NCBI GenBank assembly: GCA_965661945.1
Contig: CBFIFP010000001.1
Span: 853,592-917,591 of the forward strand
Reading direction: 5' to 3'
From: Candidatus Kapaibacteriales bacterium
GTDB taxonomy: Bacteria > Bacteroidota > Ignavibacteria > Kapaibacteriales > UBA2268
DNA: 64,000 nucleotides
Positions 19,501-50,423 of the stretch are shown piece after piece. The position numbers and the translations under genes are program-made. Within the stretch, counting starts at the first letter, position 1. Each line of letters starts with the position of its first letter. The notes beneath the pieces were generated by a model. That model searched no databases. It was not told the DNA's origin and saw only the letters and a program-made list of their open reading frames with translations.

Positions 19501-22500
19501 ACTGGATTAAACCCAACAAATTCAAACACCATTGAAGAATCTATCGAACCAGGAATTACCTTTGTCCTACCAAATTTATGGAACAAACCTCCATTAAAAG
19601 AAAAACTATTAATAACATTTAATGTGTCTAATCTTGTAAATCTATCTACCCTTGCGGTTAATGCACCTTGTATAAATTCTGTAACTTTACCATTATTATA
19701 ATTTCTTTTTGCAGGGAATCCCCTCCAAAATCTTAACTCCCTAAACTCTCCCTCAAATCCATTACTCCTCTTCCCACCCTGCATTATTGGAGTATATCCA
19801 AGATACATTCTTTTATTATTTAACGTGTCATAATTCAAATCATAAAAATCTTCTTCGCCGAAATCGTTTTCTAATTCAATACCATCTACCCATAATAAAT
19901 AAGGACTTTCCTGATTAAATGGATTAAAATAAAAAGCTATATGAACCCAAGCCGTGTCTGTTGTTGTTGAAATCGGCTCTGGAAGTCCTTTATTCGCATC
20001 AGATATTGCTCGCTTTAATTGATTATTGCTATTTCTGTAGGTGAACTCTAATAGCCCAAATTGATTCAATGACAAGTCATATTTAATATCATTTGTTAAA
20101 GAATCAAGCATTGAAAGAATTGGGAACACACTTTCACTTTCTGTAGGGAATCTATGTGGCTTTATCCAAGTTTCAATAAAAATTCCTTCCTTATTTGGCA
20201 GTAATTTACTTGTGCTATCTGAATAAATTTTATTACTTTTTGTCTTACGTAATGAAAATTCTCTTGAAACTATAAACTCATCAGTAGTGTTTGAAATAGT
20301 TCTTTGATTATGATTTTCGTGTCCTGTAATGCGAAGCATCACTCTCTTTTCGTATGGCTCTACATCTCTTAAACTTCCTCCAACATCATTACTTTGGTAT
20401 GGTTCCCAAGTTGCTCGGTTATCTTCCACATCAATCGCTCCATTACCACCAAGTTTTAAGCCCTGCTGGTTTTCCACCTGTACCCAAGTTGAGCCGCTAT
20501 TAGTTGAAAACTCTAAATACAAATCTCGTGAAAATCTTTGAGAATTATTCCCCAATCCAAAACTTATAAATCTAATGGGATAGTTCTGACCCTGCTCTAT
20601 AACTAAGCCAGTTCCTCTACTCGGAGATGTAATCCTTCCGTGTGGCAAATCTGGAACAAATTTTGGAATCTCGCTTATTTGTGTTCCTACAATATGTTGA
20701 AGATTATTTATTCCATTCTGAAATTGCGTATTTGTAGCATAATCTTTTAAATCATCACTAAGTTTATAATATAAATCTAAACCGGTTCTTGTATCCGGAA
20801 GCTGATTAATATCAATTGTAGCTGGATTTATAACTCCGGTAGAATACTTTCTAATTGAATCCTGACCAAAAGCCGTCCTCCATACTTTCACTTCTTTAAT
20901 TGCACCTGCGAAGTAATTTTTAGCATCTAACTTATTATTCGGATTAACTCCTACCCAAATTGGATGGTCTGTAATTAATAGTCTGTAATCGTTATTTTTA
21001 TTAATTATATCAGTTGCAACCAACTCGCCATCAACATATAAATATGCAATTGAGTTTTCCAATATTGCCGAAATATGTGTCCAATTTCTTGAAAATCCAT
21101 CTTCATTATCTGAAAATGCACTTGCTTTTATTGGGTCTTCTGCTACAAGATTTACAATATATCCGCCTGCACCCCTATTTTGATTTTCTCTTGCTCGGAA
21201 AGCAGGATATTTTCCATCCTTCAAATATAAAAGCCAAGCACCTTCTTTACTGCCAAATATTTCAGCTTGATTAGGCCCACCAGACGATGCAACAATTCCA
21301 ACTTCACCTGAATTTAATTTAGTTGGATTTACCCATGCTTCAATTGTTAGATGTGTCGGATTTGAAAATGTTTTTTCTGTTTTAAAATATTCATTTGCAC
21401 CATTCAAAAAACTTGTGAAATATACTCCCATTGCTTGAGTTTGTGCAGATTCTGAAACAAGATTAGTTTTTTCTCTATCTTCAATATTATCTTCTACACT
21501 ACCGCTAAGCATTGAAATTCTTAACTTTACATTGCTATTTCTTTCTCTAATATTTGTTGGTTTTGACCATAAAACTCTCATTGGGTTTCTGTAATTTGAT
21601 GTTCCAATAGCTTGCCCAGCAGATGAAGTTATAACTAAAGTTCCAACCCCTGTAGGTCTTGCAATATCACCAGAACGATAAAATACTGAACTACCTAACG
21701 CCCGATTATTGTGGTCGGCTACTCTTCCTATTTCTTTCCAACTTCCATCATTATATTCAAAACTATATGCAATATTACCGTTTAATATCCCAGGGTTTGC
21801 CTGCGGATTAACCGAACGCTCAAAATAAATTGGATAGCCAACTCCTTGATATGTATTTGCAAGTGATAAGTATGGCTTATCTCTATCAATTACTTGTCCT
21901 GTGAATTTTGGTGATAAAAGCGTTACACCGATAATCGTGAAGTTGCTTGGCTGTTTTAATGTTGCTTTGCTTGTGATATTAGTTGAGTTTACATCAAGAA
22001 CATTAGTTGCTGGGTTTGAAGTTAAAAATTTTATTCCTGTTTGAGTGTTAATTGCTGGGCTGTTTATAATATCAAATACAACTTTGCCAAGGAAAGAACC
22101 ACGTCCTGTTTGAAGTGGAATGAAACCCCCGCTCCCCATACTGATTAATCTTGCTCGGATGCCAATATTAGTTTGATTATTCAATGCCGATAAACTGGCA
22201 TATCCATTTGTGCTGTTGTAAACCGAATTAATTTGAATAAGTGGGTTTGCTTGGTCTATATTACTTGAGATTGAATCAGCAATACCATTCACGGTATTTG
22301 TGTTTGGTCTTAGAAAAGCAGAATTATACTCTAACCAAATTTGTGCATCACCAATAACCGGCGGATTTGGCTTTAGCGATTTAACCCAAATTTCTGCGTG
22401 TATTTGGTCATATTTGCGACGTTGGACAATATTGAACTCATAGTCTTGTCCTATAACATCAATAGCAAACATAAGCAAAAGCATTGCTATTACTACATTT

Positions 22501-22508
22501 CTTGACAT
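16578..22508 (-). CDS. Giant secreted T9SS cargo protein (1976 aa) with a LamG-like domain, a dockerin-like repeat pair and a T9SS CTD; paralog of the 2140-aa protein
   Basis: Signal peptide MLLLMFAIDVIGQ. LamG block LTIEAWVNPTKL...AWLLYLKDGKYPAFRA...IAYLYVDGELV. Dockerin AMVAGDANQDGRIDSTDIQDIL...DLNADSIVNAVDRIL. Shared block HLPIMSRFPAPFKYKGEDKSTWAIESGWDF. C-terminus ...GIYFLVLETDDGVFFEKFIKD (T9SS CTD). Confidence 0.8.
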   Translation of the reverse strand: MSRNVVIAMLLLMFAIDVIGQDYEFNIVQRRKYDQIHAEIWVKSLKPNPPVIGDAQIWLEYNSAFLRPNTNTVNGIADSISSNIDQANPLIQINSVYNSTNGYASLSALNNQTNIGIRARLISMGSGGFIPLQTGRGSFLGKVVFDIINSPAINTQTGIKFLTSNPATNVLDVNSTNITSKATLKQPSNFTIIGVTLLSPKFTGQVIDRDKPYLSLANTYQGVGYPIYFERSVNPQANPGILNGNIAYSFEYNDGSWKEIGRVADHNNRALGSSVFYRSGDIARPTGVGTLVITSSAGQAIGTSNYRNPMRVLWSKPTNIRERNSNVKLRISMLSGSVEDNIEDREKTNLVSESAQTQAMGVYFTSFLNGANEYFKTEKTFSNPTHLTIEAWVNPTKLNSGEVGIVASSGGPNQAEIFGSKEGAWLLYLKDGKYPAFRARENQNRGAGGYIVNLVAEDPIKASAFSDNEDGFSRNWTHISAILENSIAYLYVDGELVATDIINKNNDYRLLITDHPIWVGVNPNNKLDAKNYFAGAIKEVKVWRTAFGQDSIRKYSTGVINPATIDINQLPDTRTGLDLYYKLSDDLKDYATNTQFQNGINNLQHIVGTQISEIPKFVPDLPHGRITSPSRGTGLVIEQGQNYPIRFISFGLGNNSQRFSRDLYLEFSTNSGSTWVQVENQQGLKLGGNGAIDVEDNRATWEPYQSNDVGGSLRDVEPYEKRVMLRITGHENHNQRTISNTTDEFIVSREFSLRKTKSNKIYSDSTSKLLPNKEGIFIETWIKPHRFPTESESVFPILSMLDSLTNDIKYDLSLNQFGLLEFTYRNSNNQLKRAISDANKGLPEPISTTTDTAWVHIAFYFNPFNQESPYLLWVDGIELENDFGEEDFYDLNYDTLNNKRMYLGYTPIMQGGKRSNGFEGEFRELRFWRGFPAKRNYNNGKVTEFIQGALTARVDRFTRLDTLNVINSFSFNGGLFHKFGRTKVIPGSIDSSMVFEFVGFNPVYSGNKPYMRIVEPQEFTTIKQTNTNLKIRWVGFGLDNNGFTAGQRFGNPPSLQFSEKGGAGNSAVPYQYVGSNYFTGNTRNSLSLPDSNNYRFKEFGNNIIFAASVNISIANPDLNNDNLFIDQGALPIVTDNLRFRLTSRYVVESTPFQVRSESPLYTVIPGENFTLRVLLEGKHRGRTSPIEQIKTKYEEGGIKVTLLEDNYGKPGTKLASAEAVRGYEEQNVFHQNSGQRNFANLPFLFLDVNDGNYWVLVEQINHLPIMSRFPAPFKYKGEDKSTWAIESGWDFTSWNGSNNNFLVEGENPWTQQRYTAFGNGEAIKDSALWVSTGLNFNDGLIDAVVSPFPAMVAGDANQDGRIDSTDIQDILINTGGSNIQYDLNADSIVNAVDRILTQRNIGKVSSLGEYNYLVYGNSDTFTSSIDFDDKNEEQINKLNRLNKFNKTKEINSLLNNVAYEITSQTTVNNDIATVEFFIKSSGADLYLGNASFAFTFDTLKLDYLNYDNSGILFSNNQEAGYLNSFSAPNENTTLPYKNMRTIEIVLAQDKNGSLVPDIASSLGKLQFKIKTDDAIIQFNWHNSSIVYDNQRQNVNPLGIKEIISPIKQFDVRLLNPDGTKNFGVGQQIELKWVNEGNPIQLEYFNGTTWQKITDSVFSKEAESFEWRLPNNEIENARVRIIDASLSIELVRSEPFRIERRFGQIVSPSSNDRIYKGGEFVQVYFSTTGYDKIDIEYTEDGGDSWKVVKKGVDADSEKFSWTFPRTNTNVFYFRILSGNEIIDISDRIRVLNGSLNINTPNSSTEWNAGSNERVRWTSAGVDRFTLQFSLDGGVNWLDISRNVNATARYYNWDIPSIITDNAMIRAIWSDDPEMLYDMTSPFAIDLSSSTEFTQNQEKIFKLVNFESINNSIKINSKRNIKVNAKVYDIRGQLTTEIKTYFTLGNNVLYLNNNLTNGIYFLVLETDDGVFFEKFIKD

Positions 22509-22627
22509 ATTTCAACTCAATTTTATAAACAACACTACTAAGATGTCAATTAATGTGCCACTTGTTTTTTTTAGATATTACAAAATTGAGGAATATCTAT
22601 TGAAAAGTAAATAGGAGGAAATACTGA
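22437..22627. repeat. Direct repeat A (~191 bp). It covers the first ~20 codons, RBS and promoter region of the 1976-aa giant gene and is ~93% identical to 31022..31212.
   Basis: Aligned by eye. ...cctataacatcaatagcaaacataagcaaaagcattgctattactacatttcttgacatatttcaac...aatgtgccacttgttttttt...attgaggaatatctattgaaaagtaaataggaggaaatactga recurs at 31022-31212. Confidence 0.85.
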
Positions 22628-22696: not shown

Positions 22697-23113
22697 CTAC
22701 TTGCTGTTAAGATTTAAATTCTTTATCTTTTTAACTTTGTCTTTATATTGTTTAATAAAAAAGTAAGTTAAATTCATGTAGTAAATTAAATTTAAACCAA
22801 CAAATAAATAATTTAAAATTTCTTTACTTTCAACTAAAAAATTTAGCAAAAAAGTAATAGAGATTATTACAATTAAAAAACTGTGCACCAAATTTAAATC
22901 AAATTCTGATGAATCAATTTTATTTTGATTATTATCCAAATTTGAAATTATTTTTAAAATCAAATTCTGAAAAATAATAAAAGAAAACATCACCATTTGA
23001 CTTTTAAAATTTTTGATTTCCAAAACATTTTCTTCAAAAAATGGAATCAAAAATATTTCAATTAATAGTATAATTGAAAATATTTGAATAAGTGTTTTTA
23101 ATGTATTTTTCAT
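22697..23113 (-). CDS. Small multi-pass membrane protein (138 aa), a candidate immunity protein of cassette 1
   Basis: Several hydrophobic helices (IFSIILLIEIFLIPFF, VMFSFIIFQNLILKII, FLIVIISITFLLNFLV). It sits directly downstream of the lipoprotein remnant and overlaps it by 4 bp. Confidence 0.5.
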   Translation of the reverse strand: MKNTLKTLIQIFSIILLIEIFLIPFFEENVLEIKNFKSQMVMFSFIIFQNLILKIISNLDNNQNKIDSSEFDLNLVHSFLIVIISITFLLNFLVESKEILNYLFVGLNLIYYMNLTYFFIKQYKDKVKKIKNLNLNSK

Positions 23114-23262
23114 ATTAATCCTTTACCATAAGTCAAAAGCATCCCAGATTGTTTCAACTGCTTCACCAATTCCTTTACCGGCGGTTCCTCTTTACAAGAC
23201 CATAGAAAAGTTGATAAAAATATCAAAGAAACAATGCTTAGTTTTTTTATAGTTATGCGTGT
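23110..23262 (-). pseudogene. Truncated remnant of the cassette lipoprotein: signal peptide plus ~25 aa only
   Basis: RBS AAGGAG followed by an ATG. Translation MTRITIKKLSIVSLIFLSTFLWSCKEEPPVKELV..., then stop. Paralogs continue for ~270 more aa. Confidence 0.6.
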
Positions 23263-23321
23263 CATAACATCTCCTTTAAAAAAGTTTAACAAAAAATTTC
23301 AAATATTTTTAAAAATTTCTG

Positions 23322-23380
23322 CTAAATTAAGCACTGATAAATTAAGCACTGCTAAATTAATATGCAAGAACTTTTTTTTC
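23322..23380. repeat. 15-bp tandem repeat array (~2.5 units: GCTAAATTAAGCACT-like) upstream of cassette 1
   Basis: gctaaattaagcactgataaattaagcactgctaaattaatatgcaag. The same unit family occurs upstream of all five cassettes. Confidence 0.8.
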
Positions 23381-23394
23381 ACAAAAGAGAAAGT

Positions 23395-23445
23395 TTTCCA
23401 CATTTTGTTGAGATTATTGGGGTTGGGTGGAAATTTTTTTTTAAA
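23395..23445 (-). promoter_or_regulatory. Conserved cassette box (TTTTCCACA-TTT-TTGA-ATTATTGGGGTTGGGTGGAAA), occurrence 1
   Basis: Nearly identical sequence at 28138-28190. Related copies at 26575-26625, 30783-30835 and 32740-32790. It contains the inverted repeat TTTCCAC...GTGGAAA. Confidence 0.5.
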
Positions 23446-23518
23446 ATATGGTTATAAAATAAAACATAATTATAATAGTCAATAGCAATAGTAACGCAAA
23501 ATAAATAAAAGATAAAAT

Positions 23519-23707
23519 ATGTTAATATTTGATGAAAAAATAGAAGCAAATAAATTAATCTTAAATCTACCAAATGAATTTATTGGTAAAGAGTTGGAAG
23601 TGCATATCTTTAGTAAAAAAGATAAAAACAAAATTAAATTCAAAAATTTAAGATTATTGAAAACAAAAGAATATAAATTTAATCGTGATTTAGCAAATGA
23701 ACGATAA
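23519..23707 (+). CDS. Type II antitoxin (VapB-like), 62 aa
   Basis: Small ORF overlapping the downstream PIN-domain gene by 11 bp. Classic TA operon arrangement. Confidence 0.55.
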   Translation: MLIFDEKIEANKLILNLPNEFIGKELEVHIFSKKDKNKIKFKNLRLLKTKEYKFNRDLANER

Positions 23708-24104
23708 AGTTTTTATTGATTCTAATATCTGCATATATTGCTATTCTGATGATGAATTAGAAAAATCAGAAATTGCAAGAAAAATAATTATTAAAAATAA
23801 TTCATTTACAAGTATTCAAGTATTAAAAGAGTTATCAAATACTTTAATTAAAAAATTCAAATTAGATTTTAAAAATATTGAAAATATTATAAAAGAACAA
23901 ATTGAATTAAATAATGTTTATTTAAATAATGAAACAGATATTTTAAATGCTTTAAAAATATCAAATAAATACCAATTTAGTTTTTATGATAGTTTAATTA
24001 TATCTTCTGCTATATCTACAAATTCAAATATATTATATTCTGAAGATATGCAACACAATCAGATGATTGAAAGTAAATTAAAAATCATCAACCCGTTTTT
24101 ATGA
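23697..24104 (+). CDS. PIN-domain toxin (VapC-like ribonuclease), 135 aa
   Basis: N-terminal VFIDSNICIY (first acidic PIN residue) and C-terminal FYDSLIISSAI motif. Confidence 0.7.
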   Translation: MNDKVFIDSNICIYCYSDDELEKSEIARKIIIKNNSFTSIQVLKELSNTLIKKFKLDFKNIENIIKEQIELNNVYLNNETDILNALKISNKYQFSFYDSLIISSAISTNSNILYSEDMQHNQMIESKLKIINPFL

Positions 24105-24111
24105 TTATCTC

Positions 24112-24345
24112 TTATTTTGAATAGAATAGAATTAAGTAAAAAACTAATCTTCTACCCTTCGGTGTTGGAATTTCTAGGTTCTCATTTTTAGCTACTTCTA
24201 ACCATAACTCAATAGCATCGTTTATATTATTTAGAGCATCAAATTCGGTATCACCATGAGCCATACAACCCGGTAATTCTGGGACATCAATAACGAAACA
24301 ATCGTCTTCATCGCTCCAGTATATTATTTTTTCATATTTATTCAT
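24112..24345 (-). CDS. HicB-family (UPF0150-like) antitoxin, 77 aa
   Basis: IIYWSDEDDCFVIDVPELPGCMAHGDTEFDALNNINDAIELWLE matches the HicB/UPF0150 signature (YSxxIEWSDEDxxYVAxVPELPGCxAxGDT). Confidence 0.65.
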   Translation of the reverse strand: MNKYEKIIYWSDEDDCFVIDVPELPGCMAHGDTEFDALNNINDAIELWLEVAKNENLEIPTPKGRRLVFYLILFYSK

Positions 24346-24590
24346 TTTCTTCCCAACTGAATGAAAAGATGTAAAAAATTTTTATTATATCTTTTTTGTC
24401 TTACAGCATCAACTTCCTTGATTATCTCTTCCATAGATATATCATTTGGATTTGTTTTTAGCTTTGCTAACGTTTTTAAAAATCTATCATCAACGTCATC
24501 TGAAACAATCTTAGTTATATTCATTGTTTCTAAATCGTTTAATAGATTTTTAGCAAGAGGATTATTTAATTCTATTGATAATCTTTCCAT
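24342..24590 (-). CDS. Small antitoxin-like protein (82 aa); paralog of the antitoxin paired with a PIN toxin at 28584..28805
   Basis: MERLSIELNNPLAKNLLNDLETMNITKIVSDD... is ~85% identical to the 28584..28805 product. It overlaps the downstream HicB-like gene by 4 bp. Confidence 0.5.
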   Translation of the reverse strand: MERLSIELNNPLAKNLLNDLETMNITKIVSDDVDDRFLKTLAKLKTNPNDISMEEIIKEVDAVRQKRYNKNFLHLFIQLGRK

Positions 24591-24711
24591 TTTATCTTTT
24601 AATTTATATATTTTAAATAAAGACGTAGAATTAGAATACTTTATTATTTTGAATTTAATTTATAAAATATTGAAAATAGATATTCGTTAATAGACAAAAC
24701 AAAGAATAACT

Positions 24712-24915
24712 ATGCAAGAAAATTTAAAATCAAATATTATAAGCAAAATAAATGAATTAAATGATACAGATGTATTATTCGAAATAGATTCTTTATTGCA
24801 AAATCATAAAAAAATGACACTCGAAGAATATCAGTTAAAAATCAACAATGCTGAAAAAGATATTTTGGAAAATAACCTTTATTCTTCTGAAGAAATATCA
24901 AATTTACTATTATGA
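24712..24915 (+). CDS. Type II antitoxin (ParD/RelB-like), 67 aa
   Basis: Small acidic protein whose stop overlaps the start of the RelE/ParE toxin gene (ATGA). Duplicate at 28928..29131. Confidence 0.55.
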   Translation: MQENLKSNIISKINELNDTDVLFEIDSLLQNHKKMTLEEYQLKINNAEKDILENNLYSSEEISNLLL

Positions 24916-25208
24916 AATATATTGTTTCCTGGACAAATTCTACGAAAATTGACCTTCAAGAAATTTTAGATTATTATTTAATAAATGAAAATTTTAGTAT
25001 AGCTAAAAACCTATTAAATAAAATATTAAAATCCGTGACTTTATTAGAAAGGAATCCCAAACTAGGAAAATCTGAAACTTTGTTAGATGGTGATTACAGA
25101 TTTATTCAATCAGGAATTTATAAAATAGTTTATAAAATAAATAATAAACGAATATATATAATAGCAATATTTGATAACAGAAGAAACCCAGATGAATTAG
25201 TTATTTAG
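24912..25208 (+). CDS. RelE/ParE-family toxin, 98 aa
   Basis: ...LLDGDYRFIQSGIYKIVYKINNKRIYIIAIFDNRRNP is the hallmark C-terminal region of RelE/ParE toxins. Near-identical copy at 29128..29424. Confidence 0.75.
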   Translation: MKYIVSWTNSTKIDLQEILDYYLINENFSIAKNLLNKILKSVTLLERNPKLGKSETLLDGDYRFIQSGIYKIVYKINNKRIYIIAIFDNRRNPDELVI

Positions 25209-25227
25209 TGCAATTATTTTCTTATTA

Positions 25228-25262
25228 AGTAACATCAACAAGGGGTTTTGATGCCCCTTGTT
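25228..25262. terminator. Recurrent hairpin element CAACAAGGGG-ttttgatg-CCCCTTGTTG (bidirectional terminator between convergent genes)
   Basis: Perfect ~10-bp stem. The same element is found at 26773-26810 and 29445-29480. Confidence 0.6.
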
Positions 25263-25277
25263 GAGTGATAAGTTGTT

Positions 25278-25478
25278 TTATTTTAAATTATCTATATTTT
25301 TATTTGAAAAATAAATTACATTCCCAAGTAAAATCCCTAAAATAATTTCAAATAAAAATGTTGGTTCATAGTCTTCAAAAATAAATATTGCAACATTAAA
25401 AGCAAAGACTGAAAATATTATACACATTAGCATTGTTAAAATGTAATTAATTTTTCTATTTTTTGTTATTTTTTTCAT
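25278..25478 (-). CDS. Small membrane protein (66 aa, 2 TM), a candidate immunity protein of cassette 2
   Basis: Hydrophobic helices YILTMLMCIIFSVFAFNVAIFIF and LFEIILGILLGNVIYF. Directly downstream of the cassette-2 lipoprotein. Confidence 0.5.
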   Translation of the reverse strand: MKKITKNRKINYILTMLMCIIFSVFAFNVAIFIFEDYEPTFLFEIILGILLGNVIYFSNKNIDNLK

Positions 25479-25505
25479 ATTTATAATTCTCTTATTATAA
25501 TATAA

Positions 25506-26419
25506 TTACCAATCCAACCACCAAGGTAGCCCACCGGCTGCTTCTCCAATAGCTGCTTTAACTGAGTTTATTCCTGCTCCTACCATAGCAGCACCAAGGG
25601 TAATAGCTGCTATTCCACCTGGTCCAGTAGCAACAACCGCTTCTGGATTTGTAGCAAAAAACATCAAAGCTCCACCAGCTCCACCTACTGCTCCACCGAT
25701 ATCTTTTCCCATAACATTTTTTGCAGCAGGACTTAAATCTAATAATTTTGTTTTTGAGGAATTAGATTTATTTTTATTAATACTTATTTTGATAGTTTCA
25801 TCTACATTACCCAATTCTACCCAATCATCTTAATTAGAAGTCCAATAATTTATTGTATATTTTGCTACCATTAATGTTGCACCTACTATATATTTTTCTA
25901 TCAAACTATCTAAACTATATGCTACTGGTATTTCAGAATCACAATATTGATTAAATTGTACTAAAGTCATATTTTCATCAACATATTCATTAAATACACT
26001 ATCCAAATCAGATAACATATTAAATGCTTCTTCTGTTATATCTGGATTTGAGTTCAAATAATCACTTAATGTAGCGTAAATATTAACTTCCATAGAGTCA
26101 ATATATGACAAATCGTAATTTTTATCTTCCGCAAAATTTATGACTTCATTATAAATAAAATCATTAATTGAATCTTGTGGATGAGGATCAATTTCATTTT
26201 TTATTCGAAGCAATTTGTTGTAAATGTGTCCATACATTCATTATGATGAGTACCTACATCATTTACAGCAGTTAAATAATCATTATATGTTATTGTAGCA
26301 GAATTAGTTATCCTAATCCCATCACCACTCCTAACTGGCGGTTCCTCATTACAAGAGAATAATATTGTTGATAATAAAATCATAGAATAAATGCTTAGTT
26401 TTAGTGTTATGTATTTCAT
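25506..26419 (-). pseudogene. Cassette-2 surface lipoprotein with a Gly-zipper/microcin-like C-terminus, disrupted by one -1 frameshift (~26215) and one in-frame TAA (25827-25829)
   Basis: Three ORF-track pieces (26201..26455, 25830..26237, 25506..25814) are collinear with the intact paralog 27108..27977. The N-terminus is MKYITLKLSIYSMILLSTILFSCNEEPPV. The VGTHHNE motif is present. The C-terminus is ...GGAVGGAGGALMFFATNPEAVVATGPGGIAAITLGAAMVGAGINSVKAAIGEAAGGLPWWLDW. Confidence 0.7.
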
Positions 26420-26469
26420 AATCACTCCTTTTATTAATTTAACAAAATTATTCAAATAAAATTTGAATT

Positions 26470-26560
26470 TCTGCTAAATTAAGCAATGCTGAATTAAGCA
26501 ATGCTGAATTAAGCAATGCTGAATTAAGCAATGCTAAATTAAGCAATGCTAAATTTAGTA
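26470..26560. repeat. 15-bp tandem repeat array, ~5.5 units of GCTGAATTAAGCAAT / GCTAAATTAAGCAAT
   Basis: ctgctaaattaagcaatgctgaattaagcaatgctgaattaagcaatgctgaattaagcaatgctaaattaagcaatgctaaatttag. Confidence 0.9.
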
Positions 26561-26574
26561 GAAAATTATTTTTT

Positions 26575-26625
26575 TTCCACACAAGGAGTATTTTTCCACA
26601 ATCTATTGATATATATAGATATATA
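26575..26625 (-). promoter_or_regulatory. Conserved cassette box variant (TTTTCCACAATCTATTGATATATATAGATATATA)
   Basis: Shares TTTTCCACAAT-TATTGATAT with the other four cassette upstream regions. Confidence 0.45.
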
Positions 26626-26772
26626 AGTTTATTTTTTTTTATTATTTTTTTTATATATGGACTTAGGAAGCATAAATTGGTTAATAGTTGTGTTTGTTTT
26701 TGGGTTTTGATTAATATTCAACATCGGAGATGTTGAATAGAATAGAATTAATTTAATATAATTAATAAATTA

Positions 26773-26810
26773 TTTAATACAACATCAACAAGAGGTTTTG
26801 TTGCCCCTTG
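26773..26810. terminator. Recurrent hairpin CAACAAGAGG-ttttgttg-CCCCTTGTTG
   Basis: Same element family as 25228-25262. It lies between cassette 3 and the upstream region of cassette 2. Confidence 0.5.
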
Positions 26811-26829
26811 TTGAGTAAAATTTGTTTTA

Positions 26830-27135
26830 TTACAAATTGTTCTTGCTTTTTATTTTGCTTTTTTTATATTTTTCTAGCTCAAAACAAAAAATACCACACA
26901 TCAAGCCAAAAACAATTGAAACAATAATTACTGAAGAGTCATAAACATCATCAGTTCCAAAAAGTAAAATATAGACAATTATTTGTAACAAAAACATTTC
27001 AATTATTGAAAATATAGTGAGTTTAATTCGAGATTTATATTTAAAATCAAAATATATTTTTATAACTGATAATAAAATCTTCTTTGAATTATGCTCTTTC
27101 ATATTTATCAACCAGTTATGCCTTGCAACCACCAT
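26830..27135 (-). CDS. Small membrane protein (≤101 aa; the start may be the internal MKEHNSKK), a candidate immunity protein of cassette 3
   Basis: Two hydrophobic helices (LTIFSIIEMFLLQIIVYILLF; VIIVSIVFGLMCGIFCF). It overlaps the 3' end of the lipoprotein gene. Confidence 0.5.
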   Translation of the reverse strand: MVVARHNWLINMKEHNSKKILLSVIKIYFDFKYKSRIKLTIFSIIEMFLLQIIVYILLFGTDDVYDSSVIIVSIVFGLMCGIFCFELEKYKKSKIKSKNNL

Positions 27136-27977
27136 GGAACATCTATCACAATAGAAAGTGCTGATACACCAGACGCAGCTGCACCACCGACTAGTCCTGC
27201 ATTAATTGTAATGGCAATAGCTACTGCTGGTCCTCCAACCCAACTATAGTATAGTCCGTGAACAGCACCTCCTACTGCCCCAGCAACATCTGCTGATATG
27301 ACTCTTTTAGCTTCTGGGCTTAATGCTAATAATCTATTATTATTTTTATTCTGATGTTTCAATTCATTCTTTATTTGTATAGAACTTTCTTCCTCAAGCA
27401 AGTCAATCCAATCATCAAAATTAGTATTCCAATAATTAGCCGAATTTTTTGCTACACTTAATGCAATACCAACAACGTAAGCTTCAGTGATTGAATCTAA
27501 TGAATATGCTATGTTTATATTTGTATTGCAATACGTTTCAAATTGCATAAGAGTTATTCCATCATTAGAATACACATTAAAAACACTATCTAAACTAATC
27601 AGCATATTTTTTGCAGATTGACTTAAAATAGTATCAGTTGTTAAAATATCATTAATTGCAATTGGGTTAAAATAAAAATCTGATATCCCAGTAGTATCAA
27701 CATTGGAATTATCAAACCCATTAACATAAGCAAAAGATAGTGAATTTCCTATTAGGTAATCCAGTAGAGGAATATCTGGTTGTTCTATTTCATCGTTTTT
27801 TATTTTAGAAAGCAAAGTATACATACTGTCTAAGTACTCATTATGTAAAGAACCAACTGTATTTACATCATTTGTAAAATCATACAAACTTACACTATTT
27901 AATATTCTTAAATTTTGTGTAGAATTAACCGGCGGTTCCTCTTTACAAGAGAATAAAATTGTTGATAATAATATCAT
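27108..27977 (-). CDS. Cassette-3 surface lipoprotein with a Gly-zipper/microcin-like C-terminus (289+ aa). The body is intact, but the ancestral ATG of the signal peptide is ATC here, so the ORF track starts at an internal Met.
   Basis: Upstream in frame: AAAGGAGctgttATCAAGCACATAACACAAAAACTAAGCATTTTTTCT... = (I)KHITQKLSIFSMILLSTILFSCKEEPPV. Conserved VGSLHNEYLD motif. C-terminus ...RVISADVAGAVGGAVHGLYYSWVGGPAVAIAITINAGLVGGAAASGVSALSIVIDVPWWLQGITG with GxxxG zippers. Confidence 0.7.
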   Translation of the reverse strand: MILLSTILFSCKEEPPVNSTQNLRILNSVSLYDFTNDVNTVGSLHNEYLDSMYTLLSKIKNDEIEQPDIPLLDYLIGNSLSFAYVNGFDNSNVDTTGISDFYFNPIAINDILTTDTILSQSAKNMLISLDSVFNVYSNDGITLMQFETYCNTNINIAYSLDSITEAYVVGIALSVAKNSANYWNTNFDDWIDLLEEESSIQIKNELKHQNKNNNRLLALSPEAKRVISADVAGAVGGAVHGLYYSWVGGPAVAIAITINAGLVGGAAASGVSALSIVIDVPWWLQGITG

Positions 27978-28064
27978 AGAAAAAATGCTTAGTTTTTGTG
28001 TTATGTGCTTGATAACAGCTCCTTTATCTTAATTTAACAATTATTCAAATAAAATTTGAATTTC

Positions 28065-28125
28065 TGCTTAATTAAGCAATGCTAAATTAAGTAATGCTAA
28101 ATTAAGATGCAAGAACTTTTTTTTC
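28065..28125. repeat. 15-bp tandem repeat array (~2.5 units) upstream of cassette 3
   Basis: ctgcttaattaagcaatgctaaattaagtaatgctaaattaagatgcaag. Confidence 0.8.
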
Positions 28126-28137
28126 AAAAAAAGAGAA

Positions 28138-28190
28138 AGTTTTCCACAATTTATTGATATTATTGGGGTTGGGTGGAAATTTTTTTTTGG
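28138..28190 (-). promoter_or_regulatory. Conserved cassette box, occurrence 3 (nearly identical to 23395-23445)
   Basis: agttttccacaatttattgatattattggggttgggtggaaatttttttt. Confidence 0.5.
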
Positions 28191-28192
28191 TA

Positions 28193-28600
28193 TTAATAAT
28201 CTTTTAAGATAAATTCAAATTCACTATATTTTATGATTTTAGTATATCCAATTTGATTTAAAACTAATAAGTCATAGTCCCCAGTAATTATAAAATCTGA
28301 ATTGCTATCAACTGCAAGATTTAAAATAAAATTGTCTTTTCTATCTCTACAAATTTTTATGTTTGATTCAATGTGAATTTGTAAACCATATTTTTTCAAT
28401 AAATCTATAATATTATTGACATCATCTTCTTCAAAATACTTTTTAAATTTTTTTCTTTTAGATACATCTTTAATTTCATCTAATAGTTCATCAGAATAAA
28501 CTAAAGTAATAATATTATTCTTCAATAAATTATAAATCACTTCGAATTTATTTGATATTAAAAAATAAATCCAAACATTAGTATCAAATATTATTTTCAT
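28193..28600 (-). CDS. PIN-domain toxin (TIGR00305-like putative TA toxin), 135 aa
   Basis: MKIIFDTNVWIYFL (first PIN acidic residue) and DFIITGDYDLL near the C-terminus. It overlaps the upstream antitoxin gene. Confidence 0.7.
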   Translation of the reverse strand: MKIIFDTNVWIYFLISNKFEVIYNLLKNNIITLVYSDELLDEIKDVSKRKKFKKYFEEDDVNNIIDLLKKYGLQIHIESNIKICRDRKDNFILNLAVDSNSDFIITGDYDLLVLNQIGYTKIIKYSEFEFILKDY

Positions 28601-28805
28601 TATATCTTTTCTGTCTTACAACATCAACTTCCTTGATTATTTCTTCCACAGAAATATCATTTTTTTTAGTCTTTAGCTTAGCTAAAGTTTGTAAAAATCT
28701 TTCATCAACGTCATCTGAAACAATTTTAATCAAATTAAGTGTTTCTAAATCATTTAATAGATTTTTAGCAAGCGGATTAGTTAATTCTATTGATAATCTT
28801 TCCAT
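28584..28805 (-). CDS. Antitoxin partner of the PIN toxin (73 aa)
   Basis: MERLSIELTNPLAKNLLNDLETLNLIKIVSDD... It overlaps the PIN gene by 17 bp. Paralog of 24342..24590. Confidence 0.55.
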   Translation of the reverse strand: MERLSIELTNPLAKNLLNDLETLNLIKIVSDDVDERFLQTLAKLKTKKNDISVEEIIKEVDVVRQKRYNENNI

Positions 28806-28927
28806 TTTTTTTTATTTAATTTATGTATCTTAAATAAAGACGAAGATTAGAATACTTTATTTTTTGAATTTAATTTATAAAATATTGAAAATAGATATTC
28901 GTTAATAGACAAAAACAAAGAGTATCT

Positions 28928-29131
28928 ATGCAAGAAAATTTAAAATCAAATATTATAAACAAAATAAATGAATTAAATGATACAGATGTATTATTTGAAA
29001 TAGATTCTTTATTGCAAAATCATAAAAAAATGACACTCGAAGAATATCAGTTAAAAATCAACAATGCTGAAAAAGATATTTTGGAAAATAACCTTTATTC
29101 TTCTGAAGAAATAGCAAATTTACTATTATGA
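28928..29131 (+). CDS. Type II antitoxin (ParD/RelB-like), duplicate of 24712..24915
   Basis: 67 aa, ~98% identical to the 24712 copy. It overlaps the downstream toxin start. Confidence 0.55.
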   Translation: MQENLKSNIINKINELNDTDVLFEIDSLLQNHKKMTLEEYQLKINNAEKDILENNLYSSEEIANLLL

Positions 29132-29424
29132 AATATATTGTAAGGTGGACTAATTCTGCGAAAATTGACCTTCAAGAAATTTTAGATTATTATTTAATAA
29201 ATGAAAATTATAGTATTGCTAAAAACCTATTAAATAAAATATTAAAATCCGTGACTTTATTAGAAAGGAATCCCAAACTAGGAAAATCTGAAACTTTGTT
29301 AGATGGTGATTACAGATTTATTCAATCAGGAATTTATAAAATAGTTTATAAAATAAATAATAAACGAATATATATAATAGCAATATTTGATAGCAGAAGG
29401 AACCCAGATGAATTAGTTATTTAG
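29128..29424 (+). CDS. RelE/ParE-family toxin, duplicate of 24912..25208
   Basis: 98 aa differing at ~4 residues from the 24912 copy. The flanking non-coding sequence is also duplicated. Confidence 0.75.
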   Translation: MKYIVRWTNSAKIDLQEILDYYLINENYSIAKNLLNKILKSVTLLERNPKLGKSETLLDGDYRFIQSGIYKIVYKINNKRIYIIAIFDSRRNPDELVI

Positions 29425-29444
29425 TGCATTTATCTTTTTATTTA

Positions 29445-29480
29445 GTAACATCAACAAGGGGTTTTGATGCCCCTTGTTGA
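29445..29480. terminator. Recurrent hairpin CAACAAGGGG-ttttgatg-CCCCTTGTTG (third copy)
   Basis: Identical to the element at 25228-25262. Confidence 0.6.
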
Positions 29481-29524
29481 TTTGGGAATAAAACAAGAAT
29501 TATTTATAATATTTTAATAAAATC

Positions 29525-29785
29525 TTACTTTTTTAAATTACTATCTAAGTTTTTATTTCTTTTATTAGCTATAAAATAAATAATATAGCCACCAAAAGAA
29601 CCTGCAATTATAGATCCTAAAATAGATGGTTTACTTTTAGTCAAATTAAAACCATACATTATAAAGTCAATTACTAAAAGCAAAATGATTGTAAAAATCA
29701 TTATATTTACAACTCTTTTAGTTAGAAATCTTCTAAATTTTAGAAAATTATTTACTAATTTATTTAAAGCCAATCTAACCACCAT
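29525..29785 (-). CDS. Small membrane protein (86 aa, 2 TM), a candidate immunity protein of cassette 4
   Basis: IMIFTIILLLVIDFIMYGF and ILGSIIAGSFGGYIIYFIA helices. It overlaps the lipoprotein 3' end. Confidence 0.5.
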   Translation of the reverse strand: MVVRLALNKLVNNFLKFRRFLTKRVVNIMIFTIILLLVIDFIMYGFNLTKSKPSILGSIIAGSFGGYIIYFIANKRNKNLDSNLKK

Positions 29786-30659
29786 GGAGCTCCTGCAGCG
29801 ATTTTTACTGCCTTTTTCAAAGATTTAGTTCCAGCATAGACCATTGACACACCAATTGCACCAGCAAAAGCACCACCTGGACCTGCAGATAATCCTCCAG
29901 CGATTAATACAGCAAAAGCTCCTTGTTTGGCACCCTCCAAATCCTGATTAATCACATCTTTGCCATCTTGACTTATTTCAAGTAATTTATTACTTTTTGA
30001 ATTAGATTTAGATTTTGAAACCAAATTAGTACTTTCTTCTATATCATTCATAAGGTTAAACCAGTCATCGTAATTTTGATTCCAATAGTTAGCAGTATGT
30101 TTAGCCACTGCAAAAGTTAACCCTATAGAAATTTTTTCTGAAAGACTATCTAAATTATATGCTAAATTTATATTTGAGTTACAATATGAATCAAATTGAG
30201 CAATTGTAATATTATTATTAGCTAATTCAGTAACCATACTGTCTAAATTTAATAACATTTGCTCAGATTGTTCTGTTAAGTTCGGACTTGTTTGTAAATA
30301 CCCTACTATATCTCTTGGATAAATTATTGAAGATGTATCTAAATAATCTAAAATATAACCTTTATTATCAGCAAAATTGTAAACTTCAATTCTTATAAAA
30401 TCATCTATAGATATGTGTGGTTGAGTATCAATTCCTTCTTTAATTCTATATAGTTTTTCATATAACGTGTCAAGAACTTCATTATGATGAAGACCTACCA
30501 TATTGACTGTATCAACATAGCCAGAATAAGTAATATTAGTAGTTAAATTTTGATAGAACTCTCCACCACTTCTAACTGGTTATTCCTCTTTACAAGAGAA
30601 TAATATTGTTGATAATAATATCATAGAAACAATGCTTAGTTTAAGTGTTATGTGCTTCA
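29764..30659 (-). pseudogene. Cassette-4 surface lipoprotein with a Gly-zipper C-terminus. It carries an in-frame TAA replacing the Pro codon directly after the lipobox Cys-Lys-Glu-Glu. The ORF track shows only the piece from the internal Met (29764..30501).
   Basis: ATGAAGCACATAACACTTAAACTAAGCATTGTTTCTATGATATTATTATCAACAATATTATTCTCTTGTAAAGAGGAATAACCAGTTAGAAGT... = MKHITLKLSIVSMILLSTILFSCKEE*PVRSGG, in frame with MVGLHHNEVLD... The C-terminus ends ...GGLSAGPGGAFAGAIGVSMVYAGTKSLKKAVKIAAGAPWWLDWL. Confidence 0.65.
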
Positions 30660-30711
30660 TAACAGCTCCTTTATATTAATTTAACAAAATTATTCAAATA
30701 AAATTTGAATT

Positions 30712-30770
30712 TCTGCTAAATTAAGCAATACTAAATTAAGCAATGCTAAATTAATATGCAAGAACTTTTT
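30712..30770. repeat. 15-bp tandem repeat array (~2.5 units) upstream of cassette 4
   Basis: ctgctaaattaagcaatactaaattaagcaatgctaaattaatatgcaag. Confidence 0.8.
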
Positions 30771-30782
30771 TTTCACAAAAGA

Positions 30783-30835
30783 AAAAGTTTTCCACAAATC
30801 ATTGGGGTTGTTGGGTTTGGGTGGTGAATTAAATT
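30783..30835 (-). promoter_or_regulatory. Conserved cassette box, degenerate occurrence 4
   Basis: gttttccacaaatcattggggttgttgggtttgggtggtgaatt. Confidence 0.4.
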
Positions 30836-31021
30836 TTTTTGATTTGTTAAAATTCAACATCTCCAATATTGTGGGTAGGTGGTAGGTTTATTTTTCTACA
30901 AATATTTTACATCTCCGATGTGGGTTAGAAAATTAAATATATTTGATTTAGATTATTATGATTGAATTTTACAATTATTTATAAATTTCATTGCTTCGGA
31001 GAAGCATAATATTTGTAGCAT

Positions 31022-31212
31022 AATTTACCCCCCTGCCCTACAACATCCATAGCAAACATAAGCAAAAGCATTGCTATTACTACATTTCTTGACATATTTC
31101 AACCCAATTTTATAAACAACACTTTAATAGGTCAATTAATGTGCCACTTGTTTTTTTAGATTTTACAAAATTGAGGAATATCTATTGAAAAGTAAATAGG
31201 AGGAAATACTGA
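31022..31212. repeat. Direct repeat B (~191 bp), a copy of the promoter/5'-end region of the 1976-aa giant gene. It encodes only a truncated signal peptide (MSRNVVIAMLLLMFAMDVVGQGG... then stop).
   Basis: ~93% identity to 22437-22627. The minus-strand translation gives the giant protein's first 20 residues, then diverges and terminates. Confidence 0.85.
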
Positions 31213-31224
31213 GAAAATTAAAAA

Positions 31225-31256
31225 AACAAGGGCAATGATGCCCTTGTTTTAATTAT
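31225..31256 (-). terminator. Hairpin terminator (ACAAGGGCA-atga-TGCCCTTGT) downstream of the 31273..31644 gene
   Basis: 9-bp perfect stem flanked by A/T runs on both sides. Confidence 0.55.
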
Positions 31257-31272
31257 TTTAATATGATTATCG

Positions 31273-31644
31273 TCAAAGTTTCTTTAAAATTGGTGTGATA
31301 ATATCAGACTTAAAATCATTATAACTTAAAATATCTCTCTTAAATCGAGGAAAGTATTCTAATCTAATTTGATCTTTAAATAAATCCAATTTTATAAAAT
31401 ACCCAAAATCATTAAATTTTATTTTACTTTCAAATATGGTTGTATTTTCTTTAGTTGCTAATTTTTTTAAATCAATACCTTTTAATACATCAACAATAAA
31501 TTTATATTTTGTTTTATCATTTGATATATGGTAAACATAATAGGCTCTCCTTTTTCCTGAAAATTTTCGTATTCTGAAATAAGAATATATTAAAAAATTT
31601 ACTATTAGAAATGATAAAGATAAGACAATTAAATTAAATTCCAT
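31273..31644 (-). CDS. Membrane-anchored small protein (123 aa; one N-terminal TM), a candidate immunity protein of cassette 5
   Basis: MEFNLIVLSLSFLIVNFLIYSYF TM helix followed by a charged soluble domain. It lies downstream of the cassette-5 lipoprotein pieces. Confidence 0.45.
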   Translation of the reverse strand: MEFNLIVLSLSFLIVNFLIYSYFRIRKFSGKRRAYYVYHISNDKTKYKFIVDVLKGIDLKKLATKENTTIFESKIKFNDFGYFIKLDLFKDQIRLEYFPRFKRDILSYNDFKSDIITPILKKL

Positions 31645-31662
31645 TTGTTTATTCCTTTGTAT

Positions 31663-32555
31663 TTATTCACAAGGTACAGGTTGTTTACATTGAACACAGT
31701 AGCAAGGCCAAACTGGATCTTCGTCACCTTCTGAGTTAGAAGTTGCAATCCCTAAAATCATTATACCAGAAGTAACAGCAGCACCAAATCCACCTAGTAC
31801 AGTACCTAAGGCATCTGCACCTAAAACTGCAATGGCTTCATTTGCTTGGTCAAGAGCTTCATAATTTGGAGCCATTAATAAACTTGCCGCTTTAGTCTCG
31901 AAACCATTTGGATACCAATATTCTTTCGATTTTCTATATACTGCTTCAAATTTCAGTGCGTTAGAATAGACACTTGTATTTAAGGTATCCCAAGGAAAAT
32001 TTTCAATTCTGTTATTAAAACTAATTAAATCTAAATTTTTATAATCATTTATCATAGGGGATAAAATAGAATAATTAATTGAGTCAATATAATTCATAAC
32101 AAATGCTTCTTCAAAAATATCATCTACATGATCAAATAAAAAATTTAGAACTAAAGTATCATTTAGTTTACTAAATAAACCTACCTCCATAAAAAAATCT
32201 TTGATATTTTCTCTTTGTGAATCTACTTGACTCTCAGAATAAATATTATTTACAATATAATAATCACCCATAATCTCTAAAAATTATCAAGATCACCTAC
32301 AGTTGCAAAAAAATCACCCTCAAAATTATATAACATTAAATGAGTACTATCATGAGGTAAATTGTTATTATGGTAATAAGCTAACAAATTATTGTGTTCA
32401 ACTCCAACACTATCATAAGGATTTGAAAAGGTTGTAGAAGTTGTATAATTAATATCATTCCCAATTTTAGCGAGTGGCTCCTCCTTACAAGACCAAAGAA
32501 ATGTAGATAATAAAATCATAGAAAAAATACTTAGTTTAAGTGCTATGTGTTTCAT
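31663..32555 (-). pseudogene. Cassette-5 lipoprotein family member split into two ORFs (32277..32555 N-terminal signal part; 31663..32271 C-terminal part) by a frame change. Its C-terminus diverges: a Gly/Ala zipper followed by a Cys-rich tail CYCVQCKQPVPCE.
   Basis: N-terminal part MKHIALKLSIFSMILLSTFLWSCKEEPLAKIG...VGVEHNNLLAYYHNN... with RBS AAGGAGttgttATG. The second ORF is in a different frame and ends ...AIAVLGADALGTVLGGFGAAVTSGIMILGIATSNSEGDEDPVWPCYCVQCKQPVPCE. It may alternatively be two genuine genes. Confidence 0.5.
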
Positions 32556-32609
32556 AACAACTCCTTAAATAAATTAAACAAAAATATTACTTTCGTAAAA
32601 AGTAATTTC

Positions 32610-32710
32610 TGCTAATTTAAGCAATGCTAATTTAAGCAATGCTAATTTAAGCAATGCTAATTTAAGCAATGCTAATTTAAGCAATGCTAATTTAAGCAAT
32701 GCTAATTTAA
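32610..32710. repeat. 15-bp tandem repeat array, ~6.5 units of GCTAATTTAAGCAAT
   Basis: ctgctaatttaagcaatgctaatttaagcaatgctaatttaagcaatgctaatttaagcaatgctaatttaagcaatgctaatttaatatcc. Confidence 0.9.
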
Positions 32711-32739
32711 TATCCAAATTATTTTTTTCGATACAAGGA

Positions 32740-32790
32740 TTAGTTTTCCACAATTTATTGATATATATAGATATATAATTAAATTTTTTT
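32740..32790 (-). promoter_or_regulatory. Conserved cassette box, occurrence 5 (TTTTCCACAATTTATTGATATATATAGATATATA)
   Basis: Same as 26575-26625 and related to the boxes at 23395, 28138 and 30783. Confidence 0.45.
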
Positions 32791-50402: not shown

Positions 50403-50423
50403 TTTATCTCCAAATCTATTAAT

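Follow-up and report, generated by a model that had tools for sequence, protein, structure and literature searches.

We analyzed a 64,000-nucleotide stretch of DNA (hereafter the window) from a Candidatus Kapaibacteriales bacterium of the Ignavibacteria (GenBank assembly GCA_965661945.1, contig CBFIFP010000001.1, positions 853,592 to 917,591 of the forward strand), in which five paralogous minus-strand units occupy 22.7-32.8 kb, each carrying a lipoprotein gene with a different lesion. A profile built from 139 family members and searched over the window returned these five copies only, as nine colinear fragments. Every unit has the same order, namely a conserved upstream block (..CCACCCAACCCCAATAATCTCAATAAATTGTGGAAAAC..GTTCTTGCATA), an array of 15-nucleotide (nt) tandem repeats, a ribosome-binding site, the lipoprotein gene of approximately 300 codons, a gene for a small membrane protein and a hairpin, and looks like a two-gene operon. 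In an alignment of the upstream regions of the five units and of two units from other genomes, array and leader are separated by about 50 nt containing AAGGAG, while the end of the unit is marked by a GC-rich hairpin with a T tail, a homologous hairpin following copy 4. The leader reads MK.ITLKLSIFSMILLSTILFSC followed by KEEPPV (...LLSTILFSC, then KEE, ending in CKEEPPV), with a lipobox of the form MKHITLKLSIFSMILLSTILFS|C or ...FLWS|C in the five copies and their homologs, read from the sequence without a dedicated predictor. With their positively charged N-region, hydrophobic core and lipobox (consensus [LVI][ASTVI][GAS]C), the lipoproteins are recognizable as signal peptidase II substrates. 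After the cysteine, the C-K-E-E-P-P-V stretch has K at position +2 and E at positions +3 and +4; in the export signal of Bacteroidota lipoproteins, a polar or positive residue precedes two acidic ones within positions +2 to +6, K-(D/E)2 being the minimal and C-X-K-(D/E)2 the experimentally optimal form (PMC5080379). CKEE resembles this signal, whose rule may not be that of the host lineage, and surface exposure is plausible.

Copy 1 (23110-23262) is a remnant made of the leader MTRITIKKLSIVSLIFLSTFLWSCKEEPPV and 27 out-of-frame codons. It corresponds to a gene of the P0006 type minus 814 nt, lost through an internal deletion with a junction at ~23176-23180, and the last 17 codons of the P0006-type gene (KGIGEAVETIWDAFDLW) are still legible in a different frame; the TGA stop of the residual open reading frame (ORF) overlaps the ATG of the downstream gene (ATGA). 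Copy 2 (25506-26419) combines a 1-nt deletion, an A being absent between 26223 and 26222 (CACATT[A]TACAAC), with an in-frame TAA at 25830-25832, where the paralogs have TAC or TTT (Tyr or Phe). Copy 3 (27108-28013) has a full-length body and an intact AAAGGAG, followed by ATC at 28011-28013 where all paralogs start with ATG. Copy 4 (29764-30660) starts with ATG at 30658-30660 and is interrupted by TAA at 30580-30582, i.e. at codon 27, directly after CKEE and four residues past the lipobox cysteine. Copy 5 (31663-32555) is split into pieces of 92 and 202 amino acids (aa) by a 1-nt deletion, an A being absent between 32282 and 32281 (GATAATT[A]TTTAGAG). Both frameshifts (26222/26223 and 32281/32282) thus remove a single A from one local context, ATT[A]T. 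Homopolymer sequencing error was ruled out for them, the missing A being in each case one that interrupts a run of T's and leaves homopolymer length unchanged. Pseudogenes typically make up a few percent of the genes of a genome, and five disrupted copies out of five are far above that fraction.

The initial annotation had assigned a lesion to each copy, and its descriptions of copy 3 (full length, ATC in place of ATG) and copy 5 (split by a change of frame) agree with ours. Adjustments concern the other three: copy 1 does keep its leader, yet it results from an internal deletion relative to P0006 and not from simple truncation after the signal peptide; copy 2 has both the frameshift and the stop, the former now placed at 26223/26222 and the latter at 25830-25832 instead of 25827-25829; and the in-frame TAA of copy 4 stands, with the end of the gene shifted by one base. 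Neither the 15-nt array nor the intact small gene that accompanies each copy had been mentioned, and both are added here to the lesions.

An independent assembly from another sample (ENA ERZ23491156, binned as GCA_964452265.1), 98.5-99.7% identical to the window, served as the comparison strain and carries the copy 2 TAA, the copy 3 ATC and the copy 5 frameshift. At the level of individual loci, the copy 2 TAA is common to L001 and L002, which do not have the copy 2 frameshift, yet the latter is present in L026; the copy 3 ATC allele is identical in L001, L002 and L003; and copy 5 is broken in L005 and L006, its frameshift being found also in the Logan run ERR4674194. Logan contigs of ERR15116713 carry the copy 4 TAA, the copy 3 ATC and the copy 2 frameshift. 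Being shared with a strain from another sample, the copy 2 TAA, copy 3 ATC and copy 5 frameshift cannot be assembly errors; for the copy 4 TAA and copy 2 frameshift such an error is unlikely. The copy 1 junction lies outside any sequence repeated elsewhere.

The initial annotation had proposed comparing related islands in search of intact copies, and such alleles were found for three of the five. The intact counterpart of copy 1 is P0006, a 316-aa protein encoded at locus L007 with the same partner gene and the same downstream flank. That of copy 4, at L030, spans 300 codons with CCG at the stop site, and its partner is 100% identical to that of the window. Copy 5 has intact alleles of 297 aa at L021, L023 and L025, which differ from it by the missing A and 4-6 substitutions; the L021/L025 lineage contains intact members only. 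A close intact allele of copy 3 was sought and none was found, the gene being identical in both strains, ATC included. Because the comparison strain has the copy 2 TAA alone, the frameshift of this copy represents a later second hit in an already dead gene. Since the lesions are derived and of different ages, the five lipoprotein copies are, as judged from these comparisons, pseudogenes whose lesions are real and heritable: copies 1, 4 and 5 are disrupted relative to intact homologs, three lesions are reproducible and copy 2 is decaying further. Decay of all copies, one of the options listed by the initial annotation, is therefore backed by the recurring lesions, the two ages of lesion in copy 2 and the intact alleles elsewhere. 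The pattern looks like ordinary independent pseudogenization in a hypervariable cassette island, neither an artifact nor a programmed switch.

Two further alleles were noted in the course of this comparison. At L014 (5484-6381), in a different species, a family member is split by a frameshift into 74 aa and 214 aa, with an intact 79-aa partner after it; upstream, the record has a run of N directly against the repeat array. At L023 (97-1020) and L024, a P0009-type lipoprotein (the P0166 allele) has Phe instead of Ser at position -1 of the lipobox (LWFC), a change that could impair lipidation and amount to a subtler inactivation.

The stop codon of copy 4 has a sequence context of its own. Every leader contains, within its I-L-F-S-C-K-E-E codons, an imperfect inverted repeat with arms TTATTCTCTT and AAGAgGAAccg and a GTA loop. 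The right arm of copy 4 reads AAGAgGAATAA, giving the hairpin TTATTCTCTT-GTA-AAGAgGAATAA, where TAA is the exact complement of the TTA of the left arm, and the DNA hairpin grows from 5 to 10 pairs, with one bulge. The chance that new bases would match the opposite arm is ~1 in 9 to 1 in 27. Among intact relatives of the copy 4 leader, the closest, L027, has CCA at the stop site; L030 has CCG there, but its leader is of the copy 1 type. The three differences for one codon counted by the initial annotation hold against the CCG of the paralogs and of L030, and possibly only two bases changed, because L027 has CCA. Quasipalindrome template switching can alter several adjacent bases in one event (PMC7202029), and a single event of this kind across the imperfect hairpin fits the copy 4 TAA with moderate support, two sequential substitutions (CCA to CAA to TAA) being possible as well. 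As in the published mutations, adjacent changes perfect an inverted repeat by complementing its opposite arm, although here we deal with one natural allele and not with a mutation assay (PMC7202029). The substitution had been called odd for neutral decay; this objection loses its ground, as the change perfects a pre-existing inverted repeat, the signature of a one-step template switch, and copy 4 would provide a clean natural example of a template-switch mutation making a stop codon.

While the lipoprotein genes are broken, the small ORF that directly follows each of them, with 1-4 hydrophobic segments, is full length relative to its orthologs in all five units. Partner 1 (22697-23113, minus strand, like the others) encodes 138 aa with 3-4 hydrophobic segments; its locus is 91% identical at the nucleotide level to L007, where the ORF is open over 137 codons and the JGI product has 147 aa. 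Two hydrophobic segments are found in each of the intact partners 2 (25278-25478, 66 aa), 3 (26830-27102, about 90 aa) and 4 (29525-29785, up to 86 aa), the last being the one shared at 100% identity with L030. Partner 5 (31273-31644, 123 aa) is intact, has a single N-terminal hydrophobic segment and shows 100% nucleotide identity to L021 and L025. A small membrane ORF lies downstream of every family member examined, including that of Balneolaceae (36% identical to the query within the part that matches), and partner similarity tracks lipoprotein similarity. A comparison of selection between partners and lipoproteins was underpowered, with 0-6 substitutions per gene.

Upstream of every copy stands an array of 2.6-6.7 units of the 15-nt repeat TTAATTTAGCATTGC, on the minus strand. 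The arrays of copies 1 (23319-23360) and 4 (30716-30754) contain 2.8 units and 2 full units, respectively. That of copy 2 (26472-26555) has 5 full units in the window and 2 in the comparison strain, that of copy 3 (28065-28106) has 2 and 7, and that of copy 5 (32610-32710) has 6 in the window and 3 in the comparison strain (3 in L005, L021 and L025). Over 1184 nt, copy 3 and its partner show 100% identity between the two strains, with an array that differs by 75 nt; more generally, array length varies by 3-5 units between strains with flanks that are 99-100% identical, so the arrays appear to change length much faster than point mutations accumulate around them, the length differences resting on short-read assemblies in which partial collapse is possible. 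Units are more alike within one array than across arrays, as slippage would produce. An array close to the putative promoter whose length changes far faster than the surrounding DNA mutates is of interest in its own right. Because each unit junction forms a 14-bp near-palindrome, TGCTTAATTTAGCA, which resembles an operator, the arrays may tune transcription. A sigma-70 promoter scan found the region no richer than shuffled sequence, and a Bacteroidota-type TAnnTTTG box (TAATTTTG or TATTTTTG) precedes the ribosome-binding site in copies 2-5 and is absent from copy 1, L001 and L007. The arrays lie outside the lipoprotein ORFs and are unable to repair coding lesions.

Several side observations concern this 5' module. 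The arrays are in frame within a short minus-strand ORF, (L/M)WKTFSFVKKKFLHIN-(LALLN)n-LAEIQILFE*, at 26448-26582, 30690-30866 and 32574-32753, which ends just ahead of the lipoprotein ribosome-binding site. This frame is open in six of the seven units examined (the five copies, L001 and L007), the exception being copy 3, where it is frameshifted; copy 2 has a restart at a second GTGTGGAAAA motif. This short ORF could encode a leader peptide or be a coincidence. In the intact copy-4-type allele (L030, 1-60), AGTAG replaces the AGGAG of the other units. A scan of genome contigs with the repeat pattern gave L014 and L021 as the only relevant loci; the other matches (L008-L020 and L022, except L014), mostly cyanobacterial with one from Mesoplasma and one from Rickettsiales, were set aside as coincidence, the cyanobacterial ones presumably being pentapeptide-repeat genes, a judgment made from their A-N/K-L-S-N codons and not from annotation. 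A metagenome scan with the leader returned three loci only.

The units sit in an island of fast turnover. Direct repeats of about 180 bp bracket copies 1-4 together with toxin-antitoxin modules: the right-hand copy (22447-22627) comprises the true 5' end and upstream region of a 1976-aa gene, and the left-hand copy (31034-31212), 96-98% identical, is a fragment encoding only MSRNVVIAMLLLMFAMDVVGQG. Because direct repeats flank the block and L021 joins the giant gene directly to the copy 5 unit, these 8.6 kb look like an insertion by single-crossover recombination. Toxin-antitoxin genes occupy 23519-25208 between copies 1 and 2 (PIN, HicB-like and ParE with small partner genes) and 28193-29424 between copies 3 and 4 (PIN_3 and ParE). 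A segmental duplication (24378-24995 versus 28593-29211, 88-100% identical) extends over an antitoxin-like gene, a ParE module and an intergenic region; next after the small gene comes a PIN_3 gene in one copy and a HicB-like gene in the other.

Turnover affects whole cassettes. Beside the giant gene, the window has a deletion remnant where L007 has P0006 and L001 a 386-aa gene, and by this comparison strains exchange whole cassettes at a single chromosomal site. The copy 5 cassette (31221-32665) matches L021 (4088-5531) and L025 (5180-6623) at about 98% overall, with about 99.5% for the lipoprotein gene (98-99.5% for the unit) and 100% for the partner; because the unit is near-identical while the adjacent giant gene is only 75% identical, a recent transfer of this cassette between lineages is suggested. 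The L030 allele, with its copy-1-type leader on a copy-4-type body, demonstrates that leaders move between cassettes. P0003 joins a copy-4-like N-terminus to a copy-2-like C-terminal tail and has a partner homologous to that of copy 2. The same leader and 5' module are also found on an unrelated Cys-rich lipoprotein of 386-389 aa, which has a different partner, itself a lipoprotein.

Elsewhere in the window, three consecutive giant ORFs run on the minus strand over 1828-22508 (2140, 2544 and 1976 aa); the two that were scanned, of 2140 and 1976 aa, contain Laminin_G_3 domains, and a type IX secretion sorting domain is present in the former as well. Upstream of a 776-aa ORF (47831-50161), the minus strand carries a cobalamin riboswitch (Rfam RF00174, 77 bits) at 50242-50435. 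The GltX protein of the host shares 66% identity with its counterparts in metagenome-assembled genomes of Ignavibacteria and Bacteroidota.

The lipoproteins belong to a large family. Searching 1.84 billion proteins with a seven-member profile (E <= 1e-3) yielded 1674 representatives of 50%-identity clusters, nearly all of 270-320 aa and matched end to end, with named members from Balneolaceae and Labilibaculum. Conserved motifs mark the start of a helical domain (G..HN), its end (S..YW...W) and the start of a putative glycine zipper (D..GA..G). The AlphaFold model of an intact homolog, P0002 (pLDDT 84, pTM 0.79), is divided into a signal helix, a domain of six helices (48-208), a Lys/Asn-rich linker that is disordered and a long glycine-zipper helix (235-291), the C-terminal 55-60 residues being rich in GxxxG/A and modeled as one long helix. 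Sub-threshold matches were obtained to glycine-zipper, class IIc bacteriocin and DUF6861 profiles, all weak: Gly-zipper_Omp, Gly-zipper_YMGG and Rick_17kDa_Anti in 8, 3 and 1 of the 139 members, respectively, and Bacteriocin_IIc in two of them. A sequence search of the PDB gave the glycine zipper of SlyB at E = 0.05, which is not significant. The PDB similarities to SlyB, influenza haemagglutinin HA2 and the prion protein were dismissed as glycine-rich low complexity, the one match to a lipoprotein being insignificant. With the lesion pattern being ordinary, this large unannotated family is the more interesting lead, as it combines a lipoprotein leader, a helical domain without a PDB fold match, a glycine zipper and a membrane partner in islands of fast turnover.

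Two traits of polymorphic toxins are present, namely a shared leader and 5' module placed on divergent glycine-zipper bodies and on the unrelated 386-389-aa body, and a small partner gene directly after the lipoprotein gene, the two diversifying together. The co-diversifying partner, the unrelated cargo behind the same leader, the swapped leaders, the exchanged cassettes, the apparent recent transfer of the copy 5 unit, the neighboring PIN, HicB-like and ParE genes, the bracketing direct repeat and the weak glycine-zipper and class IIc bacteriocin matches are the reasons for which we infer a toxin/immunity logic, where the lipoprotein would be a surface-exposed membrane-active antagonist and the small membrane protein downstream its cognate protector; we hold the chances of this assignment to be about even. 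On this model the lipoprotein toxin genes would be dead and the strain a resistant non-producer, and the shared promoter, leader remnant and immunity genes would be kept as still protecting against neighbors with intact toxins, the 5' module being retained since it would also drive the partner gene. If so, the window would depict a strain having dropped all weapons and kept all shields, and the family would represent a class of surface-anchored antagonism proteins that is new for these bacteria and easy to test. For the explanation as a whole, i.e. real lesions in genes that decayed within a cassette island, together with this toxin/immunity part, we regard the case as good.

A number of points weigh against this explanation. 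The ERR15116713 contigs, the only ones to confirm the copy 4 TAA and copy 2 frameshift, are 100% identical to the window and were probably built by another assembler from its own reads, and a second source of the copy 1 deletion was looked for with none on record. Weak translation of copy 3 from ATC or from Met13 is conceivable. The census of copies was limited to the 64-kb window, the rest of the genome lying outside it. For the partners, 0-1 substitutions per gene between the strains are too few to show purifying selection, and, at the density of lesions found in the lipoprotein genes, chance would leave five short ORFs intact with a probability of ~0.1. Pfam, NCBIfam and PADLOC scans gave nothing above threshold for the lipoproteins, their partners or the alternative cargo of 386 aa, and the P0002 model had no match among PDB folds. 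Glycine-zipper lipoproteins such as SlyB can, moreover, be structural.

This last point leads to the alternative in which the pseudogenes are the same and the product was a non-toxic variable surface or envelope lipoprotein, for example a phage or predator target or a SlyB-like structural protein, lost under relaxed or negative selection. The missing toxin domain, the PDB similarity confined to the SlyB zipper and the export-signal-like CKEE of the leader agree with such a role, which we nevertheless consider rather unlikely: the co-diversifying partner, the presence of the leader on unrelated cargo and the turnover beside toxin-antitoxin modules favor toxin/immunity, and the retention of all five partners would go unexplained if the pair worked only together. 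The defective copies might instead serve as a recombination archive from which gene conversion regenerates or reshuffles functional genes. In its fullest form, conversion among paralogs or with DNA of relatives would restore toxins, repeat number would set expression and the strain would toggle between immune-only and killer states. The different positions of the lesions, the ~250 nt of 5' module and the terminator held in common, and the mosaicism of the family (the L030 allele, the P0003 chimera and the cassette replacement) are what such an archive would use. The window, however, contains no intact copy acting as an expression site, each copy has its own promoter-like module, unlike promoterless silent cassettes, and three lesions are unchanged across two diverged strains, so we find the archive, toggling included, quite improbable.

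The initial annotation had also raised regulated or phase-variable expression, readthrough and assembly errors as alternatives to decay, and none of the three fares well. Phase-variable or contingency control, with the lesions as current and reversible OFF states, draws on the array ahead of every copy, on its differences of 3-5 units between flanks of 99-100% identity, and on a conserved 5' region and signal peptide reminiscent of Mycoplasma Vlp. Yet no coding lesion falls within a repeat tract, so none can be reversed by slippage, and arrays outside the ORFs cannot mend a stop, a lost start or an 814-nt deletion; copy 2 carries two lesions, intact alleles exist elsewhere and the short-read array lengths may be partly collapsed, which makes such control very unlikely. 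Consensus or assembly errors in truly intact genes would not be surprising among five paralogs with repeat arrays, a setting where assemblies often fail, and the contigs of the comparison strain do break within this island, while the copy 1 deletion has the single source noted above. Three lesions nevertheless recur in a separate sample and strain and that of copy 5 in a third dataset, the frameshifts lose the A inside ATT[A]T without a change in homopolymer length, the lesions of copies 3 and 4 and the stop of copy 2 are substitutions, and the copy 1 junction is in no repeated sequence; such errors are highly improbable as an explanation. Programmed recoding, whether by readthrough, ribosomal frameshifting or ATC initiation, could invoke the strong AAAGGAG that copy 3 keeps at the right distance from its ATC, 100% identical in two strains. 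It is extremely improbable, as the type and position of the lesion differ in each copy, the orthologous alleles are uninterrupted at the lesion sites, neither frameshift has a heptameric slippery site and TAA is the commonest genuine stop in the window. Reassignment of TAA in the genetic code was ruled out on this same ground, TAA terminating 16 of the 25 long ORFs.

The preferred explanation, decay of lipoprotein genes in a cassette island of probable toxin/immunity type, can be set beside several known systems. The Vlp, Vsp and Vsa systems of Mycoplasma consist of clustered paralogs with a near-identical 5' untranslated region and signal peptide, divergent mature parts and a hypermutable promoter tract. 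There, the switch is the promoter tract or a site-specific inversion, the genes are intact and no partner lies downstream, whereas in the present units irreversible lesions interrupt the ORFs. Decayed toxins with retained immunity genes are familiar from the orphan modules of CDI and Rhs systems and from the acquired interbacterial defense clusters of Bacteroidales.

Within the framework of polymorphic toxin/immunity cassettes (PMC3482391), the present units share a conserved N-terminal trafficking part with variable bodies, a cognate small gene that diversifies, the occurrence of several cassettes in a variable island with replacement between strains, and dead candidate toxins next to intact partners. 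They differ in having no recognized toxin or immunity domain, in their own promoter-like module and tandem repeat, and in a trafficking part that is a lipoprotein signal with CKEE instead of a large secretion domain. SitA/SitI of myxobacteria (PMC5562445) offer a similar layout, with lipobox-bearing outer-membrane toxins of variable C-termini, an immunity gene directly downstream and multiple cassettes on mobile, variable DNA. SitA proteins, however, are nucleases that rely on TraA/B outer-membrane exchange and occur in Myxococcales only, whereas the lipoproteins described here have a hydrophobic glycine-zipper C-terminus, membrane partners and an Ignavibacteria/Bacteroidota-like host. A class II or Cdz-type bacteriocin was considered and rejected, the leader being a lipoprotein signal and the island having no exporter gene. 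The contact-dependent killers Cdz/CdzI (PMC5380434) and the ionophoric CdiA-CT (PMC11630599) resemble the proposed pair as membrane-active killers with a small integral-membrane immunity protein alongside, and Cdz proteins are, in addition, surface-retained glycine-zipper proteins (PMC5380434). CdzC and CdzD, by contrast, are small peptides that carry double-glycine-type leaders and leave the cell through a type I system (PMC5380434) and CdiA-CT form the tips of giant two-partner-secretion proteins (PMC11630599), whereas the family described here consists of 300-aa lipoproteins with a six-helix N-terminal domain, linked to these killers by weak sub-threshold profile matches only.

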